From assembly GCA_023489235.1 (NCBI GenBank), contig JAMDDE010000012.1, positions 34,570-98,569 on the forward strand: DNA of 64,000 nucleotides. Reading direction: 5' to 3'. A model generated the notes under the pieces. It ran no database searches. It was given only the letters and a program-made list of their open reading frames with translations, and had not been told where the DNA came from. Of this stretch, positions 10,847 through 49,745 are shown one piece after another. Each line of letters opens with the position of its first letter. Position 1 is the first letter of the stretch. A program made the position numbers and the translations under genes. The DNA is from Actinomycetota bacterium. GTDB lineage: Bacteria; Actinomycetota; Acidimicrobiia; Acidimicrobiales; JAMDDE01.

Positions 10847-10947
10847 TGGAGAAGTTGGTTGATCGACGGTCTGATCTTACGGGACGACCTGATCATCTGG
10901 GGGGCATTTGGATGGTTCTGATGACAACAGGTGAGGTGAGTTTTTAA

Positions 10948-17571: not shown

Positions 17572-17573
17572 GT

Positions 17574-18329: not shown

Positions 18330-18631
18330 CGATTGGAGGAGGTTGGTACCTCTCGTTGGCTGCAGTACTCTTCTCCATTGGTGTATTAGGTCTTCTGGTC
18401 AGGAGAAACATCATAGTGATGTTCATGTGCGTTGAGCTGATGCTGAATGCAGCCAACTTGACCTTTGTAACTTTTGCCAGGATGCTCAATGATATAGGGG
18501 GGCAAGCTGCCGTGTTCTTCATCCTGGTTGTGGCGGCAGCAGAAGTAGTAGTTGGCTTGGCCATAATAGTGGCTTTGTTCCGTAGGTCAGCCAGCACCAC
18601 GGCGGACGACTTCCATATCTTGAAAGGTTAA
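18326..18631 (+). CDS. nuoK: NADH-quinone oxidoreductase subunit K
   Basis: 101-aa ND4L-like protein with three TM helices ([12 protein letters not shown]). ATGA overlap with nuoJ. Confidence 0.9.
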
Positions 18632-18648
18632 GAAGGGCTAATCGATCG

Positions 18649-20532: not shown

Positions 20533-20534
20533 AC

Positions 20535-35039: not shown

Positions 35040-35900
35040 GTGATGCGTGTACTTGTAGTCGATGACAGTAGGGCAATGAGGATGATCATAAAGCGAGAGC
35101 TGCGTGCCGTGGAAGGGCTCGATGATGTCTTGGAGGCCGATAGTGCTGAAGCAGCAATCAACGTCCTCACCGAAGAGGCGGTCGATCTCGTACTGAGCGA
35201 TTGGAACATGCCAGGTATGAGTGGATTCGAGTTCTTGAAGTTGATTCGAGATGCTGGTTGGAATGGGCACTTTGGTTTCATAACCTCAGAGGCAGCAGAG
35301 TCTACCCGTATACAGGCTTTGGAGGCAGGTGCAGCGTTCCTTCTCACCAAGCCTTTTACGGGAGCAGATCTAGCGCATAACATCTCGTTGCTTTCTACTG
35401 GAGGCAGTAGCTCATATGACGAAGCAACTTCCAGTACGAGTGAGGAGGGCCCCTCCGTATCCTCGGTTCTGGAAGGGCTGCTCCACCGTGGGGTTACAGT
35501 AACCAAAGCAGATCCACCTCGGAGAGAGATGGCTAGGGCTCTGGCGCGATATGTCAATACCGCAGGTGAGTTCAAAGCTGCCTGCATGGCAGAGATCACC
35601 TTTGCCGCTTCGGCAGGAGCTGCTCTCTCGATGGTGCCTCCAGCAACTGCTTCGGAGTGGGCACGATCCGGTGCTCTTACGGAGATGATTGCTCAGAACT
35701 TCTACGAGGTTGCCAATGTCTTGGCTCCGGTGGTCAGCTTGGGAGGTCCTCATGTCCGATTGTCGGATGTGATCATGCTAGCCGATTTCGAGAAGCCACC
35801 TGATGCAGAGAGGATCACCAACCCGGCCAAGCAAGTCAACTTTAACGTGACCATCGAGGGGTACGAATCGGGCAGGATTGCTTTGATCAGCCTTTCTTGA
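35040..35900 (+). CDS. response-regulator receiver fused to a CheX/CheC-like domain
   Basis: REC domain: VVDDSRAMR, LVLSDWNMPGMSG, ITSE, LLTKPF. The C-terminal ~150 aa align with the CheX encoded at 41362 (FAASAGAALSMV... vs LAAAKHAASIMF...; YEVANVLA vs GELVNIVG, sharing the E-x2-N motif). Confidence 0.6.
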   Translation: MMRVLVVDDSRAMRMIIKRELRAVEGLDDVLEADSAEAAINVLTEEAVDLVLSDWNMPGMSGFEFLKLIRDAGWNGHFGFITSEAAESTRIQALEAGAAFLLTKPFTGADLAHNISLLSTGGSSSYDEATSSTSEEGPSVSSVLEGLLHRGVTVTKADPPRREMARALARYVNTAGEFKAACMAEITFAASAGAALSMVPPATASEWARSGALTEMIAQNFYEVANVLAPVVSLGGPHVRLSDVIMLADFEKPPDAERITNPAKQVNFNVTIEGYESGRIALISLS

Positions 35901-35999: not shown

Positions 36000-38423
36000 A
36001 TGGACGAGATAATTGAGGAGTTTCTAACTGAAACCAATGAGAACCTTGATCAACTGGATCAGGATCTAGTTGCCTTGGAACAGGATCCGACCTCAGTTGA
36101 GCTCCTGGGAAGCATATTCCGTACTATGCACACGTTGAAAGGCACGAGCGGTTTTCTTGGTTTCAACAAGTTGGAGGAACTTGCCCATGCTGCCGAGAGT
36201 TTGTTGAGCAAGCTACGGGACGGCATTCTCTTCCTCACTCCTCAACGCGTAGACGTGCTACTGGCTGTAGTGGATGAAGTAAGGGGTTTGCTAGCTTCGA
36301 TAGAGGCTAATGAGTGCGAGGACGATCGAGACCTTGCAGGTCTGCTCCTCCGACTAGAGGAGCTCCAGTCGGATGACGCAGCTGCTCCACCATCGTCGCC
36401 TGCTGATGTCCCTCAGCCGTCATCAGATGCAGATCTACCAGTTGTTGTCTCATCGGAAGGCTCTATTGAGTCCCAGTCGGAGGAGAGTCCTTTCCCGGGG
36501 CGCGGTATTGAGCCGGAGGCCCAGTCTTCAGAGGTACAGGTCAACCTCCTTGCACAAGAACAGCACCTCGATATAGAAGGCGAGCAACAAGACGAGGTCC
36601 AGTTCGGACAGCACCTAGAGGGTGAAGGTGGGCAACGCGACGATACAGAAGGTGAGCAACAAGACGAACAGGATCGCTCCAACGAGCCCCATCGTAGTGT
36701 CACTGATCGTAGTATCAGGGTGGATGTAGATCTCCTGGATGCCCTCATGAGACAGGTGGGCGAATTGGTCCTAGCCCGTAACCAGCTCATGTCCCATCCC
36801 GGAATCTCTGCTGACCAAGCATTTTATCAAACTGTGCAACGGCTCAGCTTGATCGTGAGCGAGCTGCAGGAAGGGGTCATGAAAACCAGGATGCAGCCGG
36901 TGGAACAGCTCTGGTCCAAGCTCCCCAGGATAGTGCGGGACCTCTGCAAGCAAAGCGGTAAAGAGGTCATCCTGGAGTTGGATGGTGGGGATACCGAGCT
37001 GGATCGCTCCTTGCTAGAGGCCATGAAGGATCCCTTCTTGCACTTGGTGAGGAACGCCGTTGATCATGGTATCGAGTCTCCCCAAGAAAGAGCCGAGCGA
37101 GGAAAACCTCGAGCAGGCACTCTGTCTGTCAAAGCATCCCATGAAGGGGGGCAGGTGGTCATCGAGGTTAGCGATGACGGTGCTGGGATAACCCCCTCCA
37201 AATTAGCGGCAGTAGCCGTGAAGCGGGGAGTAGTTTCCCAGGAGGAATTGGTCAGGATGTCTGAGAGGGAGATCATAGACTTGATCTTCCGACCTGGCTT
37301 CTCCACTGCCGAGAAGGTTACCAATGTCTCCGGACGTGGCGTGGGCATGGATGTGGTGAGAACGAACATAGAGCATATAGGCGGTTCCATAGACGTGAAC
37401 AGCACGCCAGGAGAAGGTACCACATTCCGTCTGAAGATACCTCTTACCTTGGCGATAATTCCGGCGTTGCTGGTTGGTTCTTCAGGTCATCGGTTTGCTA
37501 TTCCTCAAGCTAGCTTGTTGGAGATGGTCAGATTGGAGGGTAGCGAGGCACGTGCCCAAATCGAACTCATCGGCCAGTCCTCCATCTACCGTCTGCGAGG
37601 ACGGTTGCTGCCTCTCGTTCGTCTTGACGAGGTGCTCAAGCTGGATGACAAAGGATCCACGGGTCAGTCGGTAAACATAGTTGTACTACAAACTGATGAG
37701 GTCTCCTTCGGTCTGGTAGTGGATGAGGTATTCGATACCCAGGAGATAGTAGTCAAGCCATTGGGCCGTCACGTGAAGCATCTTCCCCTCTTTGCTGGAG
37801 CAACCATCCTAGGGGATGGCACTGTAGCCTTGATCTTGGACGTACCTGGCATGGCCAACTTGGTTGAGGTTGCCGAAGGAGCCTCTGTTGCCTCATCCTT
37901 GGCAGGAATGGAAGCAGACCATGCAGGTCGGGTTGGTGAACTAGCTAGTCCATTGCTTGTATTACGCGTCGGCACCAACAGGAAAGTAGCTGTGAACTTG
38001 GCTGACGTTGCTCGCCTGGAAGAAGTTTCCTCTGCTCAGATAGAACATGCAGGAGGGCGCGAAGTGGTTCAATACAGGGGTCAGCTCCTCTCATTGGTAC
38101 GTCTCGAGGATGTCTTGGAGCTGAGCCCCAAGGAGCGGGTGCAGGATATGGATACCTTGCCAGTAGTGGTGTTTTCGACCGATGCGGGTCTCTATGGTTT
38201 GGTTGCCTCCGAGATCTTGGACATAGTTACCTCCAAGGTGGAGATCGAGCACCTAGGCGACTCGCCAGGAATCACCGGTTCCATGATCATATCCGGGATG
38301 GCCATAGACATGCTGGATGTCGATGCAGCAATAGCTTTCGTCAACAGAGGACATTCATCCAACGGCAGTAAGGAGTTGGGTGATTCTCTTGTAGAGCTGG
38401 AGGTAGCGACCAGTGCCTCATGA
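36000..38423 (+). CDS. cheA: chemotaxis histidine kinase CheA
   Basis: Hpt domain (FRTMHTLKGTSGFLGF), dimerisation and HATPase domains (HLVRNAVDHGIE, DDGAGI, GRGVGMDVV, GEGTTFRL), and a C-terminal double CheW-like domain. An acidic repeat-containing linker spans ~36370-36700. Confidence 0.93.
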   Translation: MDEIIEEFLTETNENLDQLDQDLVALEQDPTSVELLGSIFRTMHTLKGTSGFLGFNKLEELAHAAESLLSKLRDGILFLTPQRVDVLLAVVDEVRGLLASIEANECEDDRDLAGLLLRLEELQSDDAAAPPSSPADVPQPSSDADLPVVVSSEGSIESQSEESPFPGRGIEPEAQSSEVQVNLLAQEQHLDIEGEQQDEVQFGQHLEGEGGQRDDTEGEQQDEQDRSNEPHRSVTDRSIRVDVDLLDALMRQVGELVLARNQLMSHPGISADQAFYQTVQRLSLIVSELQEGVMKTRMQPVEQLWSKLPRIVRDLCKQSGKEVILELDGGDTELDRSLLEAMKDPFLHLVRNAVDHGIESPQERAERGKPRAGTLSVKASHEGGQVVIEVSDDGAGITPSKLAAVAVKRGVVSQEELVRMSEREIIDLIFRPGFSTAEKVTNVSGRGVGMDVVRTNIEHIGGSIDVNSTPGEGTTFRLKIPLTLAIIPALLVGSSGHRFAIPQASLLEMVRLEGSEARAQIELIGQSSIYRLRGRLLPLVRLDEVLKLDDKGSTGQSVNIVVLQTDEVSFGLVVDEVFDTQEIVVKPLGRHVKHLPLFAGATILGDGTVALILDVPGMANLVEVAEGASVASSLAGMEADHAGRVGELASPLLVLRVGTNRKVAVNLADVARLEEVSSAQIEHAGGREVVQYRGQLLSLVRLEDVLELSPKERVQDMDTLPVVVFSTDAGLYGLVASEILDIVTSKVEIEHLGDSPGITGSMIISGMAIDMLDVDAAIAFVNRGHSSNGSKELGDSLVELEVATSAS

Positions 38424-38919
38424 CAACCGTGCAACTTCGAGAAGCAAGAAAACTACTCAGTTGTGCACATTCAGGGTGGGCAACATCTTGGTAGGCATCG
38501 AGGTGGATAGGGTACAGGAGATAAACCGTGATCAAGCAATGACCACCGTTCCCTTGGCTGCGCCGGAGATCAAGGGACTCATCAATCTTCGTGGTCAAAT
38601 CGTTACCGCTATCGACCTTCGGTATCGACTCGGATTTCCTGAACGAGGAGAGGGGGAGAAGGTCATGAATGCCGTTGTGCATAGCGGCGAGGAAATCGTC
38701 AGTTTGCTCGTGGACGAGGCAGGGGATGTCGTCGAGGTAGAGGAGGACGACTATGAACCCGTACCACCGAATGTATCCCCTGTGATTCGCAGGTTTGCCT
38801 CCGGTACCTACAAGCTGGATAACGAGCTGTTGTTGATGCTGGATGCCGATGAGGTAATCGACGGTGATTTCAGTGAGCAAGGCTTCACTAACGGCTATGG
38901 AGGAAAGAGGCTTCAGTGA
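38413..38919 (+). CDS. cheW: chemotaxis coupling protein CheW
   Basis: LCTFRVGNILVGIEVDRVQEI...PLAAPEIKGLINLRGQIVTAIDLR. The GTG start overlaps the end of cheA. Confidence 0.9.
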   Translation: MPHDNRATSRSKKTTQLCTFRVGNILVGIEVDRVQEINRDQAMTTVPLAAPEIKGLINLRGQIVTAIDLRYRLGFPERGEGEKVMNAVVHSGEEIVSLLVDEAGDVVEVEEDDYEPVPPNVSPVIRRFASGTYKLDNELLLMLDADEVIDGDFSEQGFTNGYGGKRLQ

Positions 38920-39000: not shown

Positions 39001-40125
39001 ATGGGTCTTTCTTCTCCGATTCGCGTTCTTTTAGTGGATGACTCTGCGGTCATGCGCCGTCTGCTCATGGGGGTATTCGAGACCGAGGCTGACATCGAAA
39101 TCGTGGGGACGGCTAACAATGGGCGCATGGCCTTGGAACGGTTGGAAGCCTTGAAGCCGGATATCATGGTCCTGGATGTGGAGATGCCCGTTCTCGATGG
39201 CCTGGGCACCCTCAAGGAACTGCGTCCTCATTGGCCACGCCTCCCAGTCATCATGTTCAGTAGTTTGACCGAGAAGGGAGCAGCGGCCACCCTTGATGCT
39301 TTGGCCTTGGGCGCTACTGACTATGTGACCAAGCCCAGTCATGTTAGCAATCGGGAAGAGGCTGAAGCAGTGGTGCGAGTCCAACTGGTTCCCTTGATCA
39401 GATCCTGGGGAGCCATCTCTCGTACGCGAAGAGATGGCGCAGTCCCTTCGCGAAATGCTGCTCCCCTTGCACCAACAAGCACAGAGGTGGTTCAACCGCC
39501 AATCCAGCTGAAGCCACCCAGAGAAGCAATCCCGCCCAAAGCAGTAGTGATAGGTTCCTCTACAGGTGGTCCCAATGCTTTGAGCGAGCTGATTCCCATA
39601 CTGCCAGGTGGGTTGCAAGTCCCCATCTTCATCGTTCAGCACATGCCTCCCCTTTTCACCAAGTTGTTGGCTGAACGACTAGATCAACGCTCCTCGCTCT
39701 CCGTTGTAGAAGCCCAGCCAGGCATGACTGCTAGAGCCGGTCAAGTTTATGTCGCTCCTGGCGGCGTCCATCTAGTGGTTCGCTCTCGTGCTGGAGAGGT
39801 GATCGTGGACAGCGATGATGGTCCTCCGGAGAATTCGGTGAAGCCATCGGTGGATGTGCTGTTCCGCAGTGCAGTAGAGGTGTGGGGAGGCGCACTTTTA
39901 GGGGTGGTGCTTACTGGCATGGGCCAGGATGGATTGCTTGGAGCAAGAAAGATTGTCAGTGCAGGGGGGAGAGTAGTAGTGCAGGACGAAGCTACCTCAG
40001 TGGTGTGGGGCATGCCTGGAGCTATCGCCAAGGAGAACATCGCTACCGAAGTGCTTCCCTTGCAAGAGATTGGCCTAGCTATTACCCGTTATGTTGGTCA
40101 ACCAGTACTAGGAAGGCATTCATGA
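39001..40125 (+). CDS. cheB: protein-glutamate methylesterase CheB
   Basis: REC domain (VLLVDDSAVMRR, IMVLDVEMPVLDG) plus the esterase domain (IGSSTGGPNAL, IVQHMPPLFT, GMGQDG). The ATG at 39001 has an AGGAG SD. The ORF-track start at 38950 is upstream. Confidence 0.9.
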   Translation: MGLSSPIRVLLVDDSAVMRRLLMGVFETEADIEIVGTANNGRMALERLEALKPDIMVLDVEMPVLDGLGTLKELRPHWPRLPVIMFSSLTEKGAAATLDALALGATDYVTKPSHVSNREEAEAVVRVQLVPLIRSWGAISRTRRDGAVPSRNAAPLAPTSTEVVQPPIQLKPPREAIPPKAVVIGSSTGGPNALSELIPILPGGLQVPIFIVQHMPPLFTKLLAERLDQRSSLSVVEAQPGMTARAGQVYVAPGGVHLVVRSRAGEVIVDSDDGPPENSVKPSVDVLFRSAVEVWGGALLGVVLTGMGQDGLLGARKIVSAGGRVVVQDEATSVVWGMPGAIAKENIATEVLPLQEIGLAITRYVGQPVLGRHS

Positions 40126-40952
40126 CCTTAGCCCCCAAAGACGTATCTTATGTGCGCGAGCTTGTATTCGATCGCTCAGCAATAGTATTGGGAGAGGACA
40201 AGCAGTACCTAGTGGAGTCCCGCATTACCATGTTGGCTAGAGATCTAGGCCTTGGCTCCGCAGAGGAGGTGATAGCCCGACTCAAGCGCGATGGAGATCG
40301 CACCTTGGAGGAGAGGGTCATAGAGGCCATGACCACCAATGAGACCTCTTGGTTCAGGGACGTCCATCCCTTCAATGCCTTGAAATCGGTTATCATACCC
40401 GAGGCTATGGAGCGCAATGCAGCCAAGAGATCCCTTGCCATTTGGAGCGCCGCTTGCTCTACCGGACAGGAACTCTATTCAGTGGCTATGATGCTGGACT
40501 CTGACTTTCCCGAGTTGTCCAGCTGGAAGCTTGACCTGGTTGGTACCGACATATCTCGCAAAGCAGTGGAGAAGGCACAGTCGGGGTTGTTCACGGGACT
40601 GGAGATCAATAGGGGATTGCCAGCAACGATGCTTGTCCGCTATTTCGTAAGGGATGGATCCGGATATCGCATTCGAGATGACATCAGGAACAAGGTGCGT
40701 TTTGGGGTGCTCAATTTGATAGAACCATGGCCACCCATGCCTTTGTTCGACGTTATACTTCTGCGAAATGTGCTCATATACTTTGATATGGATACCAGAC
40801 GTCGTATACTTGGTCTGGCGAAGCAGCAATTAGTGCAGGGAGGGGTGCTTATCCTTGGTGGGGCAGAGAGCGTCCTTTCCTTGGTTGATGGGTTCGTTCC
40901 TGTGACTATTGGAACGACCACGGTATACCACAAGGACAAGGAGAACGTATGA
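40122..40952 (+). CDS. cheR: chemotaxis protein methyltransferase CheR
   Basis: MTTNETSWFRD, IWSAACSTGQELYS, and LLRNVLIYFD SAM-MTase motifs. The ATG at 40122 overlaps the cheB stop (ATGA). The longer ORF-track reading (from 39882) runs inside cheB. Confidence 0.9.
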   Translation: MTLAPKDVSYVRELVFDRSAIVLGEDKQYLVESRITMLARDLGLGSAEEVIARLKRDGDRTLEERVIEAMTTNETSWFRDVHPFNALKSVIIPEAMERNAAKRSLAIWSAACSTGQELYSVAMMLDSDFPELSSWKLDLVGTDISRKAVEKAQSGLFTGLEINRGLPATMLVRYFVRDGSGYRIRDDIRNKVRFGVLNLIEPWPPMPLFDVILLRNVLIYFDMDTRRRILGLAKQQLVQGGVLILGGAESVLSLVDGFVPVTIGTTTVYHKDKENV

Positions 40953-41362
40953 CTCGTGCTCTGGTGGTTGACGATTCACGAGCGATGCGCTCTATCCTGA
41001 CCAGGATCCTGTCCAGCTTGGGTATGGAGGTGGTCGAAGCTGAGGATGGTCAATCCGCCTTGGCAAAGCTCCAACAGTTTCCTCCCTTTGACGTTGCTTT
41101 GGTGGATTGGCACATGCCAGGGATGACCGGCCTTGAGCTGATCTCCGACATGCACCGGCAGCCAAAGTGGAGATCGATGGCCATCATGATGGTCACCACT
41201 GAAAGCGACCAGTCACAGATCGTACGAGCACTCAATGCAGGTGCACACGAGTATCTAGTCAAGCCGTTCACTGCAGATGCAGTTGCAGAGAAGCTGTTGC
41301 TCCTGGGAGTCAAGTTCTCCAAGGGTAATGGATCAGAGTCGACCATGGGAGGTAATAATTGA
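40949..41362 (+). CDS. cheY: chemotaxis response regulator CheY
   Basis: Single REC domain: VVDDSRAMR, ALVDWHMPGMTG, MVTTES, YLVKPF. ATGA overlap with cheR. Confidence 0.9.
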   Translation: MTRALVVDDSRAMRSILTRILSSLGMEVVEAEDGQSALAKLQQFPPFDVALVDWHMPGMTGLELISDMHRQPKWRSMAIMMVTTESDQSQIVRALNAGAHEYLVKPFTADAVAEKLLLLGVKFSKGNGSESTMGGNN

Positions 41363-41838
41363 TGGCTACTTTATTGACCGCGGATATGATATCCGAGATA
41401 ACCTTGGAGACCTGGGAGGCCATTCTTGCTGAAGCAGGGTCCAGGCTTTCCCCCAAAGCCTCTCGTCCAGGTGAGGAAATTACCGGCTACGTGGACATAG
41501 CCGGTGCTTGGAGAGGCAATATAGGGCTTACTTGTTCGTTGGCTGCAGCCAAGCATGCTGCGTCCATCATGTTCGACATGGATGAATCCGAGTTAGGCCA
41601 ATCCGAGATCAACGATGCAATTGGCGAACTGGTCAATATCGTTGGCGGGAACATCAAGGCCTTGCTTCCTGCTCCTGCAGAGATGTCCATACCCCATGTC
41701 ATCGAAGGTAGTCCTGTTGACGACCCGGATCGTCCTCCACCGTTGAGAGAGGTGCGCTTTGAGTGGCTTGATGAATTGGTCATTGTCCGGGTATGGATGA
41801 TGCCTACCGATGAGGAGAGCTCGGACGAGGATGCTTGA
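41362..41838 (+). CDS. cheX: CheY-P phosphatase CheX
   Basis: CheX/CheC-type pattern: ITGYVDIAGAWRGNIGLTCS...AIGELVNIVGGNIKA. The ATG overlaps the cheY stop (TGATG). Confidence 0.8.
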   Translation: MATLLTADMISEITLETWEAILAEAGSRLSPKASRPGEEITGYVDIAGAWRGNIGLTCSLAAAKHAASIMFDMDESELGQSEINDAIGELVNIVGGNIKALLPAPAEMSIPHVIEGSPVDDPDRPPPLREVRFEWLDELVIVRVWMMPTDEESSDEDA

Positions 41839-41870: not shown

Positions 41871-42719
41871 ATGGCCGGGGTCACCTCTAGTGGAATAGCG
41901 AACTTGAACAGGACTAGTCCCATAGATGAGCTGAGATCGAGGGCTCTGAATGCTGGTCGTGCCTTCCTGGGGGTCAACACGGTTGCAGCGAGGAGCAGGG
42001 TCATGACCTTGAACGCACAACTGGCTGCTTCCAAGCTGGGGACCCGGGGTGCTGCCTTCAATGTCGTGGCACAGGCTTTGGATGAGGTTGTGGGCAGGCT
42101 TACTGAACTGGTTGGAGCGGTAGAGAGGGGAAGGGCCACTGTCATAGGGGGAGTGGCCCGGTTCACTCAGATGGAGAACCAGCTCAAGCTTTATGGACGT
42201 GCCTTGGGCAGGGTATCCGAGCAGGGATCTGCTGTTGGAGTCTCCCTGGAGGATGCTTTGGATCCAACTAGCGGCAATCGATGGAAGGAGGCATTGGGGA
42301 AGTCTTCGGATCGATCCATAGAGGCTTTTCTATGGGGAGCCTTGCTGAGCTTGCGTGAAGAGATGTTGAATACTTTGGGCGATATCCGAAGCGCCACCAA
42401 GTCACTGGTTCATTTGATAGAACAGGTGGAGGTGTTGGCCGCCTCGCACGGATTCTTCATTGGTATCAATGGGGTGATCGAGGCTGCCTATGTGCGCCAG
42501 GAAGAGCTGGTGCAGTTGGCCAAGGATCTTCGTTCGTTGACGGACGAGATAAACCAAGCTGTGGCATCGGCGAGCCAGGAAACCAAGATGTTGAAGAGAC
42601 TTGCTGATGCTGCTGGTGGAGTACTTCATATAGAGAGCAGTACGAGCTATGTGGGTCGTACGGAAAGAGCTGTTGATGGTATCAATCAGCTATCGGAGAC
42701 AGGGAGGATCAGTCGATGA
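41871..42719 (+). CDS. soluble protein with divergent MCP-signalling-tip-like motifs (mini-receptor candidate)
   Basis: RSRVMTLNAQLAASKLGTRGAAFNVVAQALDEV keeps the spacing of the MCP hairpin tip [31 protein letters not shown] second, weaker copy is IGINGVIEAAYV...LAKDLRSL. There is no TM segment. The ATG at 41871 has an AAGGAGGG SD. Confidence 0.45.
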   Translation: MAGVTSSGIANLNRTSPIDELRSRALNAGRAFLGVNTVAARSRVMTLNAQLAASKLGTRGAAFNVVAQALDEVVGRLTELVGAVERGRATVIGGVARFTQMENQLKLYGRALGRVSEQGSAVGVSLEDALDPTSGNRWKEALGKSSDRSIEAFLWGALLSLREEMLNTLGDIRSATKSLVHLIEQVEVLAASHGFFIGINGVIEAAYVRQEELVQLAKDLRSLTDEINQAVASASQETKMLKRLADAAGGVLHIESSTSYVGRTERAVDGINQLSETGRISR

Positions 42720-43456
42720 TCAACGAGGTCTTGTTCGATAACGGGGTCAGGCGTTGGCAGTTCATAGGTAGGGATGCCGATAGACCCAGTGAACTGATTG
42801 ATACCAACGAGTACTTGGTTACCAACAACGGTAAAGGGCTGATACCTGATCCGGGGGGTATGGAGATATTTCCCGCTGTGGTAACAGCTATATCCGAGGA
42901 GTTCGCCGTTGACAATGTAGAGGTGCTGTTCGCCTCTCATCAGGACCCAGACGTATTCTCTTCCTTGGGACTATGGGTCAAGGTTTGTCCTGGAGCAGCA
43001 GTGTGGCTCTCCCGGATATGGGAGAAGTTCATGAGTCATTTCAGCTTTGGCACCAAGTTTCACTTGATCCCCGACGAAGGAGGGGTTTTGCCTTTGGGCG
43101 GAAGCAATGATTTACAGATCATCCCTGCTCACTACCTTCACTCATCCGGCAACTTTTCCATCTACGACCCTCAAGCCAAGATCCTGTGGAGCGGAGACAT
43201 AGGAGCTGCTCTCCTCCCACCAGATCACAGCGGGGTGTTCGTGAGTGATTTCTATGAGCATACCAAGTACATGGAGGGGTTCCATCGTCGCTGGATGCCC
43301 TCCCCTCAAGCACGAGATGCTTGGATAGCGCGAGTGAGCAGACTGGAGATAGACATGATCTGCCCACAGCACGGTGCCATCATTCGTGGCGAAGATGTAC
43401 ACCGGTTCTTTCAGTGGTTCTCCGAGCTGGAGTTGGCCAGCGCATTGCATATATGA
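42716..43456 (+). CDS. metallo-beta-lactamase-fold protein resembling the flavodiiron core / ODP family
   Basis: Ordered motifs of the MBL/di-iron fold: ASHQDPD (position of HxExDH), PAHYLHSSG, LWSGDIG, CPQHGAII. It has no flavodoxin domain. The ATG overlaps the stop of the preceding gene (ATGA). Confidence 0.55.
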   Translation: MINEVLFDNGVRRWQFIGRDADRPSELIDTNEYLVTNNGKGLIPDPGGMEIFPAVVTAISEEFAVDNVEVLFASHQDPDVFSSLGLWVKVCPGAAVWLSRIWEKFMSHFSFGTKFHLIPDEGGVLPLGGSNDLQIIPAHYLHSSGNFSIYDPQAKILWSGDIGAALLPPDHSGVFVSDFYEHTKYMEGFHRRWMPSPQARDAWIARVSRLEIDMICPQHGAIIRGEDVHRFFQWFSELELASALHI

Positions 43457-43462
43457 CTTGAC

Positions 43463-43502
43463 TGGTACGCGCCTTGTAAGCCATAAGCCAGGGCACGTAC
43501 CA
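43463..43502 (+). terminator. long imperfect hairpin after the last che-operon gene
   Basis: TGGTACG/CGTACCA outer stem plus 6 further inner pairs (including one G-U wobble) and a 12-nt loop, starting 7 nt after the stop codon. There is no U-tract. Confidence 0.4.
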
Positions 43503-43577
43503 TCAGGGTGCGCCTATGGGCAGTACAGCATATGCACGCTCCTTACGAGCAATGCCTTCTTCCCTGGAGAGGACCTC

Positions 43578-43625
43578 TGAAGGTTGTGTAAAGCATGGTT
43601 GTGAAGGTTGTGTAAAGCATGGTTG
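43578..43625. repeat. perfect 24-bp tandem duplication
   Basis: TGAAGGTTGTGTAAAGCATGGTTG x2, located between two convergent genes. Confidence 0.95.
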
Positions 43626-43633: not shown

Positions 43634-45502
43634 TCAGTAAGAGAAGAAAGCGAGCAGCTCCTGTAACTCAGCTGCCATTCGAGACAGGTCTCCAGCCGCC
43701 TTGGCCACCTCACCAGCACTTTGAGAGGTAGACCCAGCTACCTCTGCGACCGAGGTGATGTTCTGAGTAATCTCCGCACCTCCCTGTGCTGCTCCAGCCA
43801 TATTTCTGGCGATCTCGTTGGTGGTAGCCATCTGCTCCTCTACGGCAGATGCCACTGTAGCTTGGATGTCGTTGATCTTGGCAATGATAGAGGAGATCTG
43901 CCCTATCGCATCCACTGCACTTGCAGTGTTGGCTTGTATCGCCTCTATCTTGGTCGATATGTCTTCGGTGGCCGTTGCAGCCTCTCTAGCCAGGTCTTTC
44001 ACCTCTGCGGCCACAACAGCGAATCCCTTACCAGCTTCGCCAGCCCTAGCTGCTTCGATAGTAGCATTCAAGGCCAAGAGGTTGGTCTGCTCGGCTACCG
44101 AGGAGATGAGCTTGACTATGTCGCCAATTTCTGCAGAGGACTTGCCCAAGTTGGAGATGGTAGCGTTAGTAGAGTTAGCCATCTCTGCAGCCTCGGTGGC
44201 TATCATCGCCGCTTCCGAGGAACTCTTGGCTATCTCCCGGATGGAAGCGGTCAGCTCCTCGGCTGCTGCTGCGACAGTTTGGATGTTGCCACTCACCACG
44301 CTGGACGTTTCCGAGACGAGCCGTGCCTGGGCAGAGGTCTCGTCCGAGCCGGCCGACATTTGCACGGAGGTAGCAGTAAGTTCCTCGGCTGCTCCCGCTA
44401 GGCTCTCGATGCTCGAGTCGATGACCTTCACCCGTGAGCGCAGCTCGGTTATGTGCTGGCGGAGCTCTGCACCTAGTTTCCCGATCTCGTCTTCGGAGGA
44501 GATCGGTACATCCACCCGGAGATCCCCCGCGCTTACCGATCCCAGCGCCTTGCTGAAGGAAGCCAGCGGTCGAGTGATCGAACGGTTCATCAGCCACAGC
44601 CCGAAGAGCAAAGCGAACAAGGAGATAATGGGCAACAGTATATAGGTGTCTTCCAGCGTGGAGGAGATGGTGCCCAGTACGCCATGGGTAACCTTTGTGT
44701 CATTGGCCTGCAAGAGGCTGTTGATGTTGGTGAGATCGGCAACTAGCTTGTTGGAGATGTCATGGTTGGCAACGGTCTGGATCTGTTGGGCTTTGGTGAT
44801 GTCACTGTTGGCTACGGCAGTACGCAGCTCGTTGGTGAAGTTGTTGTAGGTGGCCAGGTCAGCCAAGGCGGCGCGGGCAAGGGAGCGAACCTTGGCAGTA
44901 GGGGCGGTGTGGGCAAGGCTGGTCAGCTCGGACACTGCCAGCTCGTGATCCTTGGCAATGGCCCGCCACTTGGAGCTCATGACACCGATGTTCGATACAG
45001 TCATTGGCATGGCGGCCCTAATCACCTCGGCGTTCGAGGTACCGTTGTCGGCAAGGTAGGCATTGTAAGCTGCGTTGGCCTCGCTGGAGGCTGCATAGGT
45101 TGCCGAGAGTTGATTGGTAGCCGACTTGGCCGACTCCATGCCCGCTATCATCATGGCAAACACGGCCAGCCAGACTACCCCTACTACCCCTCCTGTAGCT
45201 ATCAACTTGCTCTTCACGCTCAGGTTGGCCAGCCGTCTCCCTATGCCTCTACGCCGTCCGCCCTTGGCGAGGGGGGTTGGCTTCCCTTGTTTGGATGGAT
45301 CGCTTTGAGTATTGGAGAGCTTTCTCCCATTGGAGCCTGGCAGGGGAGGGACAAACGGAGCAGAGGCACTTTCACTGCTTTCAAAAGAGCGAGGGGAGGC
45401 TGAGCTTTCCGAAAGGCCATTGCCTGAGTGCCCCTCTAAGGCAATGGCAGAGATGCCATCCTCGTTTTCGCTGTTGGTTCTCACTTGCACAGCTTCCTCC
45501 AA
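43634..45502 (-). CDS. transmembrane methyl-accepting chemotaxis protein
   Basis: Two TM segments flank a ~190-aa extracytoplasmic domain, followed by a HAMP domain ([20 protein letters not shown]) and the signalling tip [33 protein letters not shown]. Confidence 0.92.
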
Positions 45503-45701: not shown

Positions 45702-46967
45702 TCAGTGGCGTATCTTGGCCAGCAGCGATCCCTTTTGACGGTGGTTGCTCTCTTCTTCCTCTATTACCTCGTTGAGTCGCCCTGCCCATTCCTCCAGTGC
45801 CTCCTTGAGCTGCCTCCCGAGGTCCAACCACTCCCGTATCAGGTTGGTGTCACGCTGTACGCCGTTCACTGCTGTCTCGGCCAGATTTTGGGTGAGACGA
45901 TGAAAGTACTGGTGGTCGCTGTTGACCTCTGCATAGTACCTCTGATCGTGCTGCGACTCGGGTAGGTTGTCCAATGTCTGGCCTAGTCTGCAAGCATGGA
46001 AGTCACCTGCCACCTGCACGTCTATGCTTCCCTCACCAAGGAGTGCCCTATAGACACGGAACCTCCAGAGCAGATGGTCGGTGGCGGAGAGCAGGAGTTT
46101 GGTGGCTAGAGAGGCAGGGGGGTACTGAGCCAAGAGAAGCTTGCGTTGCTCCTCGGCGGAGTCCACGCTCTTGGCCAGGAATCTCGATGCTTGAGTAAAG
46201 GAGTCCGCGCTGGTGTGAAAGGCTGTCTGGAGACCCACGACATCACGAGTAACCATCTCCAGTGCAGTGCGTTGTTCAGCCACTGCCTGGAGGCTGCTTG
46301 CTGCCTTCGGTAATAGCGCGGAGAGGCGTTGACTGAACTCGGTGACCTGTTCCAACGCCTCCGATGACTGGGCTTGGTTGGAGATGAGGCGTTGTTGAGC
46401 CTGATGGAGGGCGGCCTGCACTTGATCGGCAGAACCAGTCACATCTGCTAGTACGGTTAAAGCCTCTCCTGTAGCTGCTTTGGTTCGTTGCGCCAATTCA
46501 CGAACCTCGTCAGCTACGACAGCGAATCCACGTCCTGCCTCACCGGCTCTAGCCGCTTCGATAGTGGCATTTAAAGCAAGCAGGTTGGTAGCATCGGCTA
46601 CATCCGTCACTACCTTCACCATGCCGGCAACTCTTTGGACCTGTGAGGTGAACTGGGTCACGCTGTCTACTACATGTGACATCTCCTCTGCGCCTGCAGC
46701 GGTATCCCTGGCCACAGCGGCAGAGGACTGCTGCCAGCTGACCAACTGGTCACGTGCACCAGCCAGGTCAGCTTGAAGGGCGTCACTTTGAGTGGCAATG
46801 GTTTCCACAGTAGCCGATAACTCCTCTGCAGCCGCCGCGACGCTGTCCAGTCGTTCCAGCCCGCTCTCCATGCTCCAGCGGGCCTCAGCCATGGCTTCGT
46901 ATGCATTGATGGCATCCTCTATCTGCATGCTCCAGTTGAGTGCTGGATGGGTCGTCGTAGTCATATC
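45702..46967 (-). CDS. soluble methyl-accepting chemotaxis protein with a C-terminal CZB (zinc-binding) domain
   Basis: Signalling tip [33 protein letters not shown], no TM segment. C-terminal CZB pattern DHLLW...[10 protein letters not shown]...DHQYFH (3His/1Cys). The start at 46967 has a GAGAGGAG SD. The ORF-track ATG at 47015 has none. Confidence 0.85.
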
Positions 46968-47013
46968 AGCAACTCCTCTCACCTCTGACCCCTTTTCTTT
47001 CTCTTTGATTGTC

Positions 47014-47123
47014 ATACTATTGATCGTTTGGATTGCTTACCTTGTTCTCTTTGTGTCCTGTACCAAGTAGTCGAAGTCGTATGGCTATACTATTGATCGT
47101 TTGGATTGCTCATCCTGTTCTCT
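47014..47123. repeat. two copies of a 37-bp direct repeat (period 73 bp)
   Basis: ATACTATTGATCGTTTGGATTGCTTACCTTGTTCTCT (47014-47050) and ATACTATTGATCGTTTGGATTGCTCATCCTGTTCTCT (47087-47123), with 3 mismatches. They lie in the leader/promoter region of the CZB-MCP gene. Confidence 0.95.
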
Positions 47124-47153: not shown

Positions 47154-49745
47154 CTACTTGGTCATGGCAAGCACGGACAAGCGTCGGTAGGCTATCTCGG
47201 CCGCGTGCTTCCAGGTGAACTCCGAGGTGATGGTTTCTCTGGCTCTAGCGCCAATCTCTCTTGCCTCCTCAGGATATGCAATCACATGCTGCAGTGTTGC
47301 CTTGAGTTCTCTACGATCCGGTTCGTACCAGCGATAGCCACCCAGAGTGGATGGAGGAAAATCACTGATGGAGGTGGGTCGCTCGAAGGCAGGGATAAGA
47401 TAGGCGTTGTCTTCCCTGCAGAAGTCCATAGCCCCTCCCTTTCCAGTGGCGATCACCGGCAATCCTGACGACATCGCCTCAGCTATGGGCAGTCCGAAAC
47501 CTTCCCCCCGATAGGGGGATACGAGCACGTCACAGCTTCTATACAGGCTGGCCAACTCCTCCTCTCCGAGGTCTTGGTCGATGAGCTCGATTTCAGGGAG
47601 GGTAGGGTCCTTGGATGCTTGGTACAGCATCTTGGCGAAGTTGCCTCGTCGGTAGAGTGTATCCACACCGAATGCCTTTATCACCAGGCAGACATCGCTT
47701 GCAGGAGCGAAAGTGGCCACATAGGCATCCAGCAGCACGTCAATTCCTTTGCGCGCAATTGGACCACCTACGAACAAGAATTTGTATGACCTCTTGGTGG
47801 AGAGGGGGTACGAGCTTCCCTCTGGTTTGAACAGCTCTGTATCGACCCCATTTGGCACTACGTAGACCTTCGATTCATCCACGCCGGATCGTACGTATTG
47901 TTCCTTGACCCAGCTCGATGGGCACCACACCTCATCGGAGTAGGTGTTCAACCCTCTCACCCAAGCTTCGGGTACCCCAATGAACTCCCACGGCTGAATG
48001 GTGACCAATCGTCCATTCCTAGGAGGCGAGAAGTACGGAGGGAATCGATGGCGTACCTCTATGTTCGCTTGGCCGGGATCTCCAAAAGAATAGTGGATTG
48101 CCTGATCCGTCCCATCCCCCTCTCCATCCCTGTGGTTCGTCTCTGGCCTCCCCCTCTGTTCATGGCTTACTTCTAGCCGATGATCGTCTCGGGTTGGAAA
48201 GTCTTTCGTATTCGAGGGAGTTGGTGATTCCTTCGTAGCGTGATGGACGGCCACTCCAAGTTTGACAAGGGCTTTGCCCAGTTCACGGTTGACCCGAGCC
48301 AAACTGTGATGAGCATACACGTCACCAACCCATTTGACGGCTATCGGTGGAGTCGAGCTGGTCCAGGACGGCTCTGTCATTGAAGCTCTTGTTGATACAG
48401 CAGTTCTTCTGCCGTGGAGTTCTTTGGAGATCTCTTTCAGACGAGATTTGGCTAAGTTGGATACAGCCTCCCAGGTGAAGTTGGTTTCTATGTCTTTTCT
48501 GGCCTGTTTGGAGATGGAGTTGAGCCACTTCGGCCTCTTGGCGGTGAAACGGAACAACTCCACCAGGTGATCCTTGGAGGGCTTGGCCCAGCGCTGACCG
48601 TAGTATTGCTCCATGTCCATGCGATCTTCAACTTGGACTAGCCCCTCCGTATCGAGCAACAATGAGTTGTGGTCATTCATGTACTCCAAGTTGCCGCTCC
48701 ATCGGGTGGCTATTACTGGCAGTCCACAGGCCATGGCCTCCATCTGTGGTCGGCCATAGCCCTCTCCCCTGGAAGGAGCTACGTATATGTCAGCAGTTGC
48801 CATCAAACGGACGAGTTCATGAGGGGAGAGAGATCGATGTATTAAAATGATCGGGGCTACCGAGGCGCGTTCCAAGTTCATCCGCTTCAGCTCAGCTGCA
48901 ATGGCAGCTTCAATTTGTTTTGCCGCGTCAGCTGAGGACTTCCAGTTTCGTGGATAGCAGTGCAGGAGCAGGCAGACGTCGTCACTTGGCTTGAATGCTT
49001 CTGCCCAGGCTTCCAGCAGCACGTCGTATCCTTTGCGCAAGCTCCATTGGAAGACGGAGAGGTAAACAGTGCTTCGTAGCCCTGGGATGGGCAAAGGGGG
49101 GCGTCCTGGCCTGAAACGGTTGGTGTCCACTCCTCCTGGAACTACGTAGATTGGCACCTCGACGCCTGAGCGCTTGAAGGTCTCTTGGTTGAAGTGAGAG
49201 GGAACCCACACCTCGTCTACCGAGTTGAGCGTTACTATCCATGGCTCAGGCAGTCCGTCGGTCTCGAACATGGTTCTTGCCACCACGTACTCGAGGCCCC
49301 ATGCGTCCTCATAGGCTACATGCACATCAGGGGGCGCATGTACGATAGCGACAGGAGAGGGTTGGTCTCCCTGACTCACTGATTCGATGAGGAGCTTGGC
49401 CGACCCAGGATCGTCACGTTGGAGAGCGATGCTCATTCCCTCCAGTTCTTTGGTGAATGATCGTGCTCTCAGTGGGTAGCCAACTCTACGAAGTCCAGTT
49501 ACAAACCCCCTGGCCTCTTCGGAGTATCCGCTCCAATCCCATAGAGGACCTATCCAAACAGCCTCCTCCAACCGTTCTCTGGTCTTTGCGTTGCTGAGGT
49601 TTGTGGATGCTTTAGGTAGCCGTTTCTCCAGCCGTTCCATGCCCCTTGTGTTGCTGACCGAGGTGCGACTTCTTGGGTTCTTGGGTGACAAGGCTGGCTC
49701 GGTCATCTCTTGTTCCTCGGTCATCTCTTGTTCGGTCTCGGACAT
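47154..49745 (-). CDS. double GT-B (family 1/4-like) glycosyltransferase
   Basis: It has two complete 'glycosyl transferase group 1' signatures: SRGEGYGRPQMEAMACGLPVIAT and YRGEGFGLPIAEAMSSGLPVIAT. Confidence 0.85.
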   Translation of the reverse strand: MSETEQEMTEEQEMTEPALSPKNPRSRTSVSNTRGMERLEKRLPKASTNLSNAKTRERLEEAVWIGPLWDWSGYSEEARGFVTGLRRVGYPLRARSFTKELEGMSIALQRDDPGSAKLLIESVSQGDQPSPVAIVHAPPDVHVAYEDAWGLEYVVARTMFETDGLPEPWIVTLNSVDEVWVPSHFNQETFKRSGVEVPIYVVPGGVDTNRFRPGRPPLPIPGLRSTVYLSVFQWSLRKGYDVLLEAWAEAFKPSDDVCLLLHCYPRNWKSSADAAKQIEAAIAAELKRMNLERASVAPIILIHRSLSPHELVRLMATADIYVAPSRGEGYGRPQMEAMACGLPVIATRWSGNLEYMNDHNSLLLDTEGLVQVEDRMDMEQYYGQRWAKPSKDHLVELFRFTAKRPKWLNSISKQARKDIETNFTWEAVSNLAKSRLKEISKELHGRRTAVSTRASMTEPSWTSSTPPIAVKWVGDVYAHHSLARVNRELGKALVKLGVAVHHATKESPTPSNTKDFPTRDDHRLEVSHEQRGRPETNHRDGEGDGTDQAIHYSFGDPGQANIEVRHRFPPYFSPPRNGRLVTIQPWEFIGVPEAWVRGLNTYSDEVWCPSSWVKEQYVRSGVDESKVYVVPNGVDTELFKPEGSSYPLSTKRSYKFLFVGGPIARKGIDVLLDAYVATFAPASDVCLVIKAFGVDTLYRRGNFAKMLYQASKDPTLPEIELIDQDLGEEELASLYRSCDVLVSPYRGEGFGLPIAEAMSSGLPVIATGKGGAMDFCREDNAYLIPAFERPTSISDFPPSTLGGYRWYEPDRRELKATLQHVIAYPEEAREIGARARETITSEFTWKHAAEIAYRRLSVLAMTK
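49698..49733. repeat. perfect 18-bp tandem duplication at the 5' end of the GT-B gene
   Basis: CTCGGTCATCTCTTGTTC x2; it encodes the duplicated EQEMTE. Confidence 0.95.

Follow-up and report, generated by a model that had tools for sequence, protein, structure and literature searches.

The last gene of a complete chemotaxis operon in a flagellated actinobacterial MAG, odp, encodes a stand-alone MBL-fold protein that belongs to the ODP (oxygen-binding di-iron protein) family. Directly upstream lies the gene of a cytoplasmic MCP-type protein without a sensor module, and the genetic coupling of the two is conserved among relatives. ODP has been described as a sensor for O2 and iron that is coupled to receptors without sensor modules of their own (PMC7666581, PMC6978683, PMC7319448), and we consider it probable that odp is such a sensor, produced together with a dedicated sensor-less transducer and providing an aerotaxis or iron-taxis input to the che operon. 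All positions refer to the window, i.e. the whole stretch of 64,000 nucleotides that was analyzed. By itself, odp is an ordinary member of an already described family; its partner is less ordinary, as the transducer differs from both characterized types of ODP receptor, each of which has a single canonical tip.

Family, fold and predicted metal site of the ODP protein

The odp reading frame specifies a product of 246 amino acids, and the features relevant to its assignment are the following:

42716-43456, + strand: odp, ODP-family di-iron MBL-fold protein, predicted sensor (Pfam PF19583, PDB matches to ODPs, AF2 and Foldseek)
42938-42952, + strand: codons of H75-Q-D77-P-D79, the ODP form of MBL motif 2, predicted ligand cluster, invariant
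43130-43141, + strand: codons of H139-Y-L-H142, the motif 3 histidines, both invariant
43196-43198, + strand: codon of D161, motif 4, predicted bridging aspartate, invariant column
43367-43372, + strand: codons of Q218-H219, motif 5, invariant columns

The Pfam profile of the ODP family, PF19583, matches the product with an E-value of 1.8e-69 and 234 bits, its cut-off being 27.2, and this match is full-length, with profile positions 1-194 of 194 aligned to residues 28-220 of 246. A second Pfam domain, or a flavodoxin or rubredoxin module, was not found by the Pfam search of the product, and as the ODP profile alone matches, the first-pass annotation was right to describe a protein devoid of a flavodoxin domain. 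In a sequence search of the PDB, the product retrieved the ODPs of T. maritima (6qrq, E 5.5e-70) and T. denticola (6qnm, E 1.5e-59). The AF2 model has a pLDDT of 93.2, and its MBL alpha-beta/beta-alpha fold is superposable on the solved ODPs. As evidenced by Foldseek, the model matches the Zn-reconstituted T. maritima ODP 6qwo with TM scores of 0.94/0.91 and an rmsd of 1.6 Å, and the T. denticola ODPs with TM scores of 0.85-0.92, the peroxo di-iron structure 6r9n scoring 0.87/0.92. The T. maritima protein (6qrq, 6qwo) is thus the closest solved structure, and the T. denticola ODP (TDE2498; 6qnm, 6r9n), about 40% identical, shares Pfam family, fold and ligand columns with the protein from the window. 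The family is large, with 3,402 homolog clusters at E<=1e-10, and in public annotation the relatives of odp go by 'MBL fold metallo-hydrolase', 'flavorubredoxin' or 'FprA family'.

The sequence carries the motifs ASHQDPD (residues 73-79), AHYLHSSG (138-145), WSGD (158-161) and CPQHG (216-220) exactly as they had been read at first pass, and the corresponding site is built from the predicted ligands His75/Asp77/Asp79, His139/His142, Asp161 and Gln218/His219. All eight residues are invariant in alignments of 23 and of 42 sequences, both of which include the two solved ODPs. The complete ODP ligand set, an H-x-D-x-D motif without the histidine at its sixth position, the motif 3 histidines, the motif 4 aspartate and the motif 5 Gln-His pair, is therefore present in the product. 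His142 and Asp161 are spaced by 19 residues, the same His-to-Asp spacing as in flavodiiron proteins. Gln218 stands in for the missing histidine of motif 2, a hallmark of ODPs, and this substitution by glutamine has been described for the T. maritima protein (PMC7785958). The first-pass annotation had regarded H-x-D-x-D as a deviant motif that might entail a different metal. This idea has to be given up, as HQDPD is retained in 42 of 42 ODP homologs and in both solved di-iron ODPs, and a motif invariant in the family gives no ground to expect another metal in odp. The ODP-like di-iron MBL-fold identity proposed at the same time is upheld by the profile, the solved structures and the invariant ligand columns.

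The che operon and the conserved gene pair

Nine genes on the + strand form the operon, in the order RR-cheA-cheW-cheB-cheR-cheY-cheX-transducer-odp. Those upstream of odp, and the junction in front of it, are:

35043-35900, + strand: first gene, CheY-like receiver followed by a C-terminal part of about 170 amino acids of unknown type (Pfam Response_reg only)
36000-38423, + strand: cheA (Hpt, H-kinase_dim, HATPase_c and CheW domains)
38413-38919, + strand: cheW (PF01584)
39001-40125, + strand: cheB (Response_reg and CheB_methylest)
40122-40952, + strand: cheR (CheR_N and CheR)
40949-41362, + strand: cheY (Response_reg)
41362-41838, + strand: cheX, CheY-P phosphatase (PF13690, E 2.2e-18)
41871-42719, + strand: tandem-hairpin (single-chain) MCP-like transducer of 282 amino acids, predicted ODP partner (hhalign, AF2, family profile)
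42702-42719, + strand: Shine-Dalgarno-like GGGAGGA (42702-42708) and ATGA start/stop overlap (42716-42719), read from the sequence

The che operon is complete, and its genes are separated by short gaps or overlap. G+C content is uniform throughout, so that there is no sign of a recent insertion of the transducer/odp pair. The gene order from cheA to odp corresponds to that given in the first-pass annotation, to which the response regulator in front has to be added; no PDB sequence match was found for the C-terminal region of this protein. A scan of the operon for promoters and terminators remained at chance level and yielded no operon boundaries. At the final junction, the ATG of odp (42716-42718) overlaps the TGA of the preceding frame (42717-42719; ...TCG ATG A TC...), which bears out the ATGA overlap noted before, and GGGAGGA ends 7 nt ahead of this ATG. 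The window also encodes FlgK, FlhA and FliD, a receptor with a CZB domain is adjacent, and the organism carries genes for complex I and heme biosynthesis.

We located further genomic loci with the ODP alignment and searched their flanks with a purpose-built HMM for the tandem-tip gene. In about 70 of 80 loci, from many phyla, this gene lies immediately upstream of ODP on the same strand, and the two usually overlap or stand no more than 33 nt apart; Magnetospirillum, Azovibrio, Zoogloea and Vibrio relatives are among the carriers of the pair. The distance matrices of ODP and transducer are correlated with a Mantel r of 0.846, a value reached in none of 2000 permutations. A transducer homolog followed by ODP, or by a gene in the ODP position, with the same 4-nt overlap is found in loci L007, L008 and L009-L011. 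The overlap is kept in L007, L008, L009 and L013, with receptors that are only 51-53% identical, and for a fourth close transducer homolog, P0206, the contig ends just past the receptor gene. This conserved pairing substantiates the earlier proposal that the MBL-fold gene is coupled to a sensor-less, receptor-like gene feeding into chemotaxis.

Within the clade of the window, the pair is always part of a che operon, and this location strengthens the link of ODP to CheA signaling. Elsewhere, che genes are absent within 7-9 kb of most pairs of tandem transducer and ODP (about 60 of 80 loci) and likewise of L012 and L013, the closest relatives of odp, so that in general the genomic context does not prove the output partner.

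The arrangement is related to, but distinct from, those already described. According to the TREND paper (PMC7319448), which refers to Muok et al. 2019 for this point, ODP occurs in an operon with an MCP gene in two gene orders. The window represents the MCP-then-ODP order of this class, the same order as in the roughly 70 of 80 loci above; in the accessible parts of the published descriptions of ODP operons the partner is simply an 'MCP', and its tandem-hairpin nature goes unmentioned. In T. denticola, ODP is genetically coupled to the soluble receptor TDE2496, which lacks sensor and transmembrane modules. In loci of that type, however, ODP comes first and the receptor second, no che genes are found within 5 kb, and the receptor, of about 285 amino acids, is a classical hairpin whose only tip is central and canonical (GILAINASIEAARAGKVGSGFRIIANEVRSLA). 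The receptor gene of the window precedes odp, shares 4 nt with it and encodes tandem tips, and a che operon ends with this pair. The analogy to T. denticola drawn at first pass thus holds for the coupling of ODP to a soluble receptor, but not for its supposed location inside a che operon, and with its different gene order and single-tip receptor the T. denticola system is an analog of the one in the window rather than a template that was copied.

Architecture of the upstream transducer

The most likely start of the transducer is ATG 41871, resulting in 282 amino acids; GAAGGAGGG stands in front of it, and on six public contigs gene callers have chosen the same start. The translation contains no long hydrophobic stretch and has no Pfam match above cut-off, MCPsignal (PF00015) reaching only 14.5 bits of the required 34.6 (E 0.032). 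Nevertheless, 34 of 49 family members match MCPsignal at E<=0.01, the family profile reaches MCPs, and in hhalign each half of the chain aligns with canonical MCP tips at probabilities of 97.7 and 97.8%, respectively. We therefore regard the transducer as a divergent homolog, not as a member at the profile level. The N-terminal and C-terminal halves also align with each other (91.9% probability, E 7e-7). Its two tips are:

42003-42080, + strand: tip 1, residues 45-70, MTLNAQLAASKLGTRGAAFNVVAQAL, retains the Asn, the Gly-x-x-Gly of the turn and the Phe of the canonical tip
42456-42539, + strand: tip 2, residues 196-223, FIGINGVIEAAYVRQEELVQLAKDLRSL, keeps the canonical Glu of IEAA(R), with the Gly turn and the Phe lost

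Judged by its sequence and its model, the transducer consists of the tip hairpin of a chemoreceptor, duplicated in tandem. The first-pass term 'mini-receptor' was apt insofar as the protein is a homolog of the MCP tip, but it implied a single tip motif where there are tandem tip hairpins, and a chance resemblance of the second tip is rejected by the profile-profile alignment of each half with canonical tips. The AF2 model (pLDDT 91.1, pTM 0.83) consists of helices 17-55, 57-115, 150-208 and 211-281, with predicted turns at residue 56 and residues 209-210. MCP signaling domains contribute one hairpin per chain and form their four-helix bundle as homodimers, and this chain has two tip-centered hairpins in one soluble polypeptide, as natural single-chain MCPs do. 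In the simplest interpretation, the predicted fold is a four-helix bundle formed by one chain, in imitation of the tip of a receptor dimer. The pTM and the folds retrieved by Foldseek suggest side-by-side packing of the hairpins; Foldseek returned nothing at E<=1e-3, its best matches being de novo designed single-chain four-helix bundles, and this result serves as support for the topology only.

The divergence of the two tips is complementary. Across the family, tip 1 conserves N48 (100%), A49 (94%), G57 (100%), G60 (90%) and F63 (86%), and tip 2 conserves E204 (98%), with R or Y at 207 and L213 at 78%. In hhalign, Asn48, Gly57 and Glu204 coincide with the conserved Asn, turn Gly and Glu of the canonical MCP tip, positions that mediate trimer and CheW/CheA contacts. 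In the alignment of 49 transducer sequences there is no conserved stretch of 7-10 columns. A protein search with the transducer profile returned mainly ordinary MCPs and few family members.

In the PDB, the sequence most similar to the transducer tip is that of TM14 from T. maritima (3g67), at an E-value of only 0.25-1. TM14, a chain of 213 residues whose structure is a homodimeric hairpin, has only one tip, located around residue 105, and the transducer has two. Two tip hairpins per soluble chain are also present in natural single-chain MCPs and in the engineered scTsr and Tar/Tm14 'foldon' dyads. Binding of CheA and CheW and control of the kinase are established for the engineered dyads (2 x 71 residues), whose two tips are identical, unlike the diverged tips of the transducer. 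When we searched the literature for natural MCPs with tandem or double hairpins, the sole result was a brief mention of natural single-chain soluble MCPs, with an example from R. centenum; the function of these natural proteins was stated to be unknown (Mowery 2015, PMC4692393).

Proposed signaling, alternative readings and implications

From the homology to the T. denticola and T. maritima proteins we infer metal content, O2 binding, a contact between ODP and transducer, and an effect on CheA. In such a scheme, odp and the upstream transducer would be made together as the last genes of one operon, and Fe(II)-loaded ODP would reversibly bind O2 as a peroxo-diferric species. The metal or O2 state would change the conformation or the oligomeric state of ODP, which might then act on the complex of transducer, CheW and CheA and alter CheA-P, hence also CheY-P and flagellar switching, with CheX resetting CheY-P. 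The outcome would be an aerotaxis and/or iron-taxis input for a flagellated actinobacterium that possesses complex I. Note that the characterized ODP systems have a single-tip receptor, so that this extrapolation of the mechanism has to bridge two different receptor architectures.

With the same fold and the same partner, the signal might be something other than O2, such as Fe(II) availability, NO, H2O2 or general redox state, or the site might be loaded with another metal in this organism. Members of the ODP family reportedly mediate iron as well as oxygen responses, the Zn-reconstituted structure implies that the site accepts other metals, and the neighboring CZB-domain receptor hints at a wider metal- or oxidant-sensing neighborhood. 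Complex I and the heme genes may furthermore mean that O2 is constantly present, a situation that would favor a sensor for iron or hypoxia. Against this, odp shares its full ligand set with the two ODPs whose structures were solved in di-iron/peroxo form, its first motif is the norm of the family and no feature of its sequence indicates an altered specificity. We hold this reading to be unlikely, although it is the likeliest of the alternatives.

It is also improbable that ODP is the sensor but the transducer a decoy, a tether between ODP and CheA/CheW, or, in the many genomes without che genes close by, an input to a process other than chemotaxis, instead of a kinase-controlling array receptor. 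The most constrained tip residues are precisely those that match conserved positions of the canonical tip, single-chain dyads of similar size do control the kinase, and the pair in the window clade never leaves the che operon. This holds in spite of the unusual degeneracy of the tips in the window, evident from the low MCPsignal score, by which binding to CheW and CheA is not assured. The helices of about 55 residues without an obvious adaptation region and the missing che genes around most pairs elsewhere likewise fit such a role, and T. denticola arrays showed no fixed position for ODP, yet deletion of ODP changed the ordering of CheA.

Returning to ODP as a chemotaxis sensor, the assignment has to be set against flavodiiron proteins (FprA, ROO, flavorubredoxin), which share the MBL-type di-iron core fold. 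A catalytic O2/NO reductase core working with a separate flavodoxin or rubredoxin would point to detoxification instead of sensing, and this reading has in its favor the labels 'flavorubredoxin' and 'FprA family' on some relatives and a distant likeness to flavodiiron cores (E of about 7e-4 in the PDB, a TM score of about 0.79, 26.8 bits with the NCBIfam flavorubredoxin profile). Yet the sequence similarity is marginal, and 26.8 bits fall far short of the cut-off of that profile, 635. Flavodiiron proteins have H-x-E-x-D-H and a C-terminal flavodoxin; the odp product has H-x-D-x-D, as H-Q-D-P-D-V, with the additional Gln, and no flavodoxin, and the che operon contains no gene for flavodoxin or rubredoxin. 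In addition, the near-universal pairing and co-divergence with an MCP-like gene, and the placement as last gene of a che operon, are at odds with an enzyme. Profile scores, PDB matches and fold comparison together lead us to reject this reading as highly improbable. A hydrolytic MBL-fold enzyme (lactamase, lactonase or phosphodiesterase) placed beside che genes by chance is very unlikely indeed and likewise rejected: in spite of the public 'metallo-hydrolase' labels and a weak match to generic Lactamase_B (44.6 bits, E 2.1e-11), the ODP profile is ahead by about 190 bits, H-Q-D-P-D-V replaces the zinc motif H-x-H-x-D-H, true beta-lactamases (GIM/VIM) superpose only at a TM score of about 0.6 with an rmsd above 6 Å, and the gene pairing is conserved.

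The profile searches recommended in the first-pass annotation (Lactamase_B, flavodiiron, ODP) thus put ODP far ahead, and the structure prediction recommended alongside gave a model that superposes on solved ODPs. Neither a grouping with hydrolase-type MBLs nor an absence of co-occurrence in relatives was seen, nor was a failure of the ligands to converge on a binuclear site, the third observation that it had named as speaking against the proposal.

The ODP family, its fold and ligand set and its role in O2/Fe(II) chemotaxis were published in 2019 and a Pfam entry exists, so that odp alone matters little. What the window adds is a clean example of ODP from an uncultured, flagellated actinobacterium in which the sensor pair is wired into the che operon. 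A modestly novel side result concerns the receptors upstream of ODP, which in most genomes are predicted to be tandem-hairpin, single-chain mimics of a dimer tip. Tentatively, and at somewhat less than even chances, these may constitute a natural class of single-chain 'pseudo-dimer' chemoreceptors, the numerically dominant, dedicated ODP transducer across many phyla and distinct from the TM14 and T. denticola types, in which the canonical motif is divided over the two tips: its Asn, Gly-x-x-Gly and Phe would be left to tip 1, its IEAAR Glu/Arg to tip 2. If true, this would provide a function for the natural single-chain MCPs noted in 2015 as being of unknown function, and a natural asymmetric dimer in which to ask which subunit contacts CheW/CheA and which faces the trimer axis. 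The tandem-tip transducers would thereby offer a testable function for natural single-chain MCPs, and a natural system for the study of subunit asymmetry in chemoreceptor arrays.

The che-odp operon and its surroundings

The odp gene is the last of nine genes that lie head to tail with short gaps or overlaps, from a response regulator through odp, and the G+C content is flat over the whole operon (0.51-0.56).

Genes of the che-odp operon
35043-35900 (+), gene 1, response regulator with a CheY-like receiver
36000-38423 (+), gene 2, cheA
38413-38919 (+), gene 3, cheW
39001-40125 (+), gene 4, cheB
40122-40952 (+), gene 5, cheR
40949-41362 (+), gene 6, cheY
41362-41838 (+), gene 7, cheX
41871-42719 (+), gene 8, receptor-like (transducer) gene
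42716-43456 (+), gene 9, odp

An identical locus is present on six public contigs, and public copies carry an Actinobacteria/Actinomycetota MAG label (e.g. GCA_023381455.1). The start of the transducer gene is most likely ATG 41871, giving 282 aa, because GAAGGAGGG precedes this codon and the gene calls on the six public contigs use it. As the first-pass annotation had stated, the odp ATG and the stop codon of the upstream ORF overlap (TCG-ATG-A at 42716-42719); a Shine-Dalgarno-like GGGAGGA lies 7 nt before the odp start codon, and odp is probably translationally coupled to the transducer gene. In the product of gene 1, ~170 residues after the receiver are without Pfam or PDB sequence match; in the related locus L007 a 287-aa response regulator (3969-4832) stands between odp, which directly precedes it, and fliG.

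The window also holds flgK, flhA, fliD, a nuo (complex I) cluster and heme-biosynthesis genes (2368-6184, 9443-23686, 24346-26010, 30196-32244, 52662-55187), a gene content that suggests a flagellated and respiratory lifestyle for this actinobacterial MAG. The heme genes encode a methylase/HemD fusion, HemB and a HemL-like aminotransferase. Two canonical chemoreceptors, at 45702-47015 (-) and 43634-45502 (-), are encoded convergently to the end of the operon: a soluble MCP of 437 aa that has a CZB (chemoreceptor zinc-binding) domain at its C-terminus, and a HAMP-MCP of ~620 aa. Between odp and the convergent MCP gene, a gap of 177 nt contains two identical copies of a 24-bp direct repeat (TGAAGGTTGTGTAAAGCATGGTTG, 43578-43625), with an imperfect inverted repeat GGTACG...CGTACC just upstream (~43463-43503). 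No Pfam family was found for 28557-30221 (-; 554 aa), which adjoins flhA, or for 47154-49745 (-; 863 aa), which adjoins glycosyltransferase genes.

Two tips in one transducer chain

Taken alone, the transducer, a hypothetical protein in public annotation, gave no Pfam match above the cut-off (MCPsignal E 0.032), and its best PDB sequence matches were fragments of the soluble receptor TM14 with E 0.25-1. Only four close homologue clusters emerged from a word-indexed search of 5.8 billion clusters, while a profile search over all 1.84 billion representatives yielded 83 proteins (E<=1e-3), mostly 240-290 aa long and aligned end to end. MCPsignal matches at E<=0.01 in 34 of 49 aligned members, and the retrieval of ordinary MCPs by the family profile with E down to 4e-15, mark the family as a divergent branch of the chemoreceptor signalling domain.

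Tip-like motifs occur near residue 57 (MTLNAQLAASKLGTRGAAFNVVAQAL) and near residue 208 (FIGINGVIEAAYVRQEELVQLAKDL). In profile-profile comparison the N-terminal half (12-118) matched the C-terminal half (148-262) with 91.9% probability (E 7e-7) and the tips in register, and against a profile of 57 canonical MCP tips the halves reached 97.7% (E 2.4e-12) and 97.8% (E 1.2e-12), the hairpin turn again being in register for each. The proposed 'mini-receptor' is indeed an MCP-tip homologue, but its tip is duplicated rather than single. An AlphaFold2 model from a 49-sequence alignment (pLDDT 91.1, pTM 0.83) predicts four long helices (17-55, 57-115, 150-208 and 211-281) with turns exactly at both tip motifs, the two hairpins being joined by a linker of ~35 residues. 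Foldseek returned no solved homologue of this model at E<=1e-3; the best matches were de novo single-chain up-down-up-down four-helix bundles (~235 columns, rmsd 7.7-10 Å), and the canonical long receptor hairpin 3zx6 gave an rmsd of 50 Å. From these results we infer that the two hairpins may lie next to each other, their tips at the same end, which would make a single-chain mimic of the receptor dimer tip.

The two tips show complementary degeneration throughout the family. Tip 1 conserves Asn48 (100%), Ala49 (94%), Gly57 (100%), Gly60 (90%) and Phe63 (86%) and has lost the canonical Glu, whereas tip 2 keeps Glu204 (98%) and usually an Arg at 207 and has lost the Gly turn and the Phe. Both convergent MCPs, in contrast, carry the classical tip ending (K/R)GFAVVA.

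Conservation of the transducer-ODP pair

In the relatives' loci L007, L008 and L009-L011, cheX is followed by a receptor homologue with 51-80% identity to the window's and then, here too overlapping by 4 nt, by an ODP gene or a gene in the ODP position; another close homologue, P0206, sits behind cheR-cheY-cheX, the contig ending just past its gene. Scanning one genome per species with the ODP alignment gave at least 596 matching loci, and the best 80 of these (from Proteobacteria, Nitrospirota, Planctomycetota, Leptospirales, Myxococcota, Fibrobacteria, Sericytochromatia, Bacteroidota and Solirubrobacterales) were examined. About 70 of these best 80 have a tandem-tip family gene (185-285 aa) directly upstream on the same strand, so the two genes that the first-pass annotation had linked do co-occur in relatives. 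The genes overlap or abut in an estimated 48 of 81 pairs, and nearly all are within 33 nt. For 74 pairs, the distance matrices of partner and ODP correlate with a Mantel r of 0.846, reached by none of 2000 permutations, and the partner evolves much faster (mean identity 25% versus 58% for ODP). This shows that both are inherited as a unit, co-divergence not being proof of physical contact. In the locus L130 (3-1251) the tandem-tip member P0176 lies downstream of the ODP gene, followed by a convergent sigma-54 response regulator, and both gene orders therefore exist in the tandem class.

Che genes were found within 7 kb in only ~20 of the 80 best ODP loci. Outside the window clade, the nearest ODP relatives (63-68% identity) retain the pair, with no che gene within 9 kb of it:

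L012, 8221-9741, tandem-receptor/ODP pair
L013, 8189-9741, tandem-receptor/ODP pair
L014, 5332-6884, tandem-receptor/ODP pair

It is unlikely, though its degenerate tips and the many pair loci without che genes nearby would suit such a role, that the transducer merely tethers ODP or acts as a decoy instead of controlling the kinase as a receptor. The mycofactocin genes mftA, mftB and mftC lie a few kb from the pair in L013 and L014. In the Solirubrobacterales MAG locus L031 (4476-6980), longest-ORF calling places an 834-aa product upstream of ODP, of which only the C-terminal ~250 aa resemble the tandem receptor; the long stretch before them probably arose from the ORF calling. The C-terminal part is nearly identical to a Magnetospirillum protein (L040), which across phyla hints at contamination or recent transfer.

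The ODP and its proposed role in signalling

The ORF at 42716-43456 (+) is real, and its 246-aa translation contains all four motifs ascribed to it (ASHQDPD at 73-79, AHYLHSSG at 138-145, WSGD at 158-161, CPQHG at 216-220). It is a full-length ODP family member. As anticipated, PF19583 ('ODP family beta lactamase'; E 1.8e-69, 234 bits, whole profile covered) lies far above the generic Lactamase_B profile at 44.6 bits. The best two matches among all PDB sequences are ODPs (E 5.5e-70 and 1.5e-59), with flavodiiron proteins next at ~1e-3, and the NCBIfam flavorubredoxin model scored 26.8 bits against a cut-off of 635. An AlphaFold2 model built from 42 homologues (pLDDT 93.2, pTM 0.92) likewise superposes best on solved ODPs.

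Foldseek comparison of the odp model with solved structures
T. maritima ODP (6qwo, 6qrq): TM 0.94/0.91, rmsd 1.6-2.0 Å
T. denticola ODP, including peroxo di-iron 6r9n: TM 0.85-0.92, rmsd 1.8-2.8 Å
Flavodiiron cores: TM ~0.79
Genuine beta-lactamases: TM ~0.6, rmsd >6 Å

Residues H75, Q76, D77, P78, D79, H139, H142, D161, Q218 and H219 are invariant in alignments of 23 and 42 sequences, the former taking in both solved ODPs. The first motif, H-x-D-x-D, had been read as deviant; because HQDPD is invariant in homologues and both solved ODPs, it is instead the canonical family signature. V80 and Q218 agree with the description of T. maritima ODP, Gln substitution included (PMC7785958). The family is known and well populated (3,402 clusters at E<=1e-10), and the window gene adds one member. 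That the physiological ligand is Fe(II), NO, peroxide or another metal instead of oxygen seems unlikely. A catalytic flavodiiron-type enzyme is highly improbable and a hydrolase even more so, as both roles conflict with the motif, the domains present, the profile scores, the order of the fold matches and the conserved gene pair.

In T. denticola the ODP TDE2498 is the oxygen sensor of chemotaxis, genetically coupled to TDE2496, an MCP homologue without transmembrane and sensing modules that modulates CheA, and ODP deletion alters CheA ordering in arrays (PMC7666581). As an auxiliary sensory subunit, ODP binds iron and oxygen, and its interaction with its receptors depends on conformation (PMC6978683). 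ODP genes share operons with MCP genes, in either of two orders, or with other signalling genes, and some are fusions with signalling domains (PMC7319448). We scanned metagenomes with the T. denticola ODP sequence to find the partner of the characterised ODP. In the loci recovered (relatives 56-98% identical), the order is ODP then receptor, the receptor being ~285 aa with one canonical central tip, GILAINASIEAARAGKVGSGFRIIANEVRSLA, near residue 140. The T. denticola pair had been placed within a che operon, but no cheA, cheW, cheR or cheX was found within 5 kb of these loci. The window has the opposite gene order and another receptor type, and its pair does sit inside a che operon; TM14 of T. 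maritima, too, has only one tip, near residue 105 of its 213, where the window transducer has two. The window system would accordingly function as the published ODP systems do, with a receptor of different architecture. The roles of natural single-chain MCPs are described as unknown (PMC4692393), and CheA/CheW binding together with kinase control has been obtained with engineered single-chain receptors and with tip dyads of 2 x 71 residues. No paper linking tandem-tip receptors to ODP was found in the literature searched, which excluded key primary sources.

An ODP with an intact ligand set and a tandem-hairpin MCP-tip protein are encoded together as the last genes of a complete che operon, and the bacterium is flagellated. 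The evidence supports the first-pass interpretation of a receptor-coupled, ODP-type chemotaxis input once three points are corrected: the first motif, the T. denticola arrangement and the number of tips in the receptor. By homology, Fe(II)-ODP would bind O2 as a peroxo-diferric species, the metal/O2 state would change its engagement with the transducer-CheW-CheA complex, this would shift CheA-P and CheY-P, and CheX would reset the signal. Muok et al. 2019 reportedly described a stable mu-peroxo adduct of ODP and destabilisation of CheA-P by iron-peroxo ODP. More speculatively, the single-chain transducer might turn one tip towards the trimer axis and use the other for CheW/CheA-P5, and this would account for the different residues that each tip conserves. 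It is the tandem-hairpin partner class, apparently dedicated to ODP, that merits follow-up.
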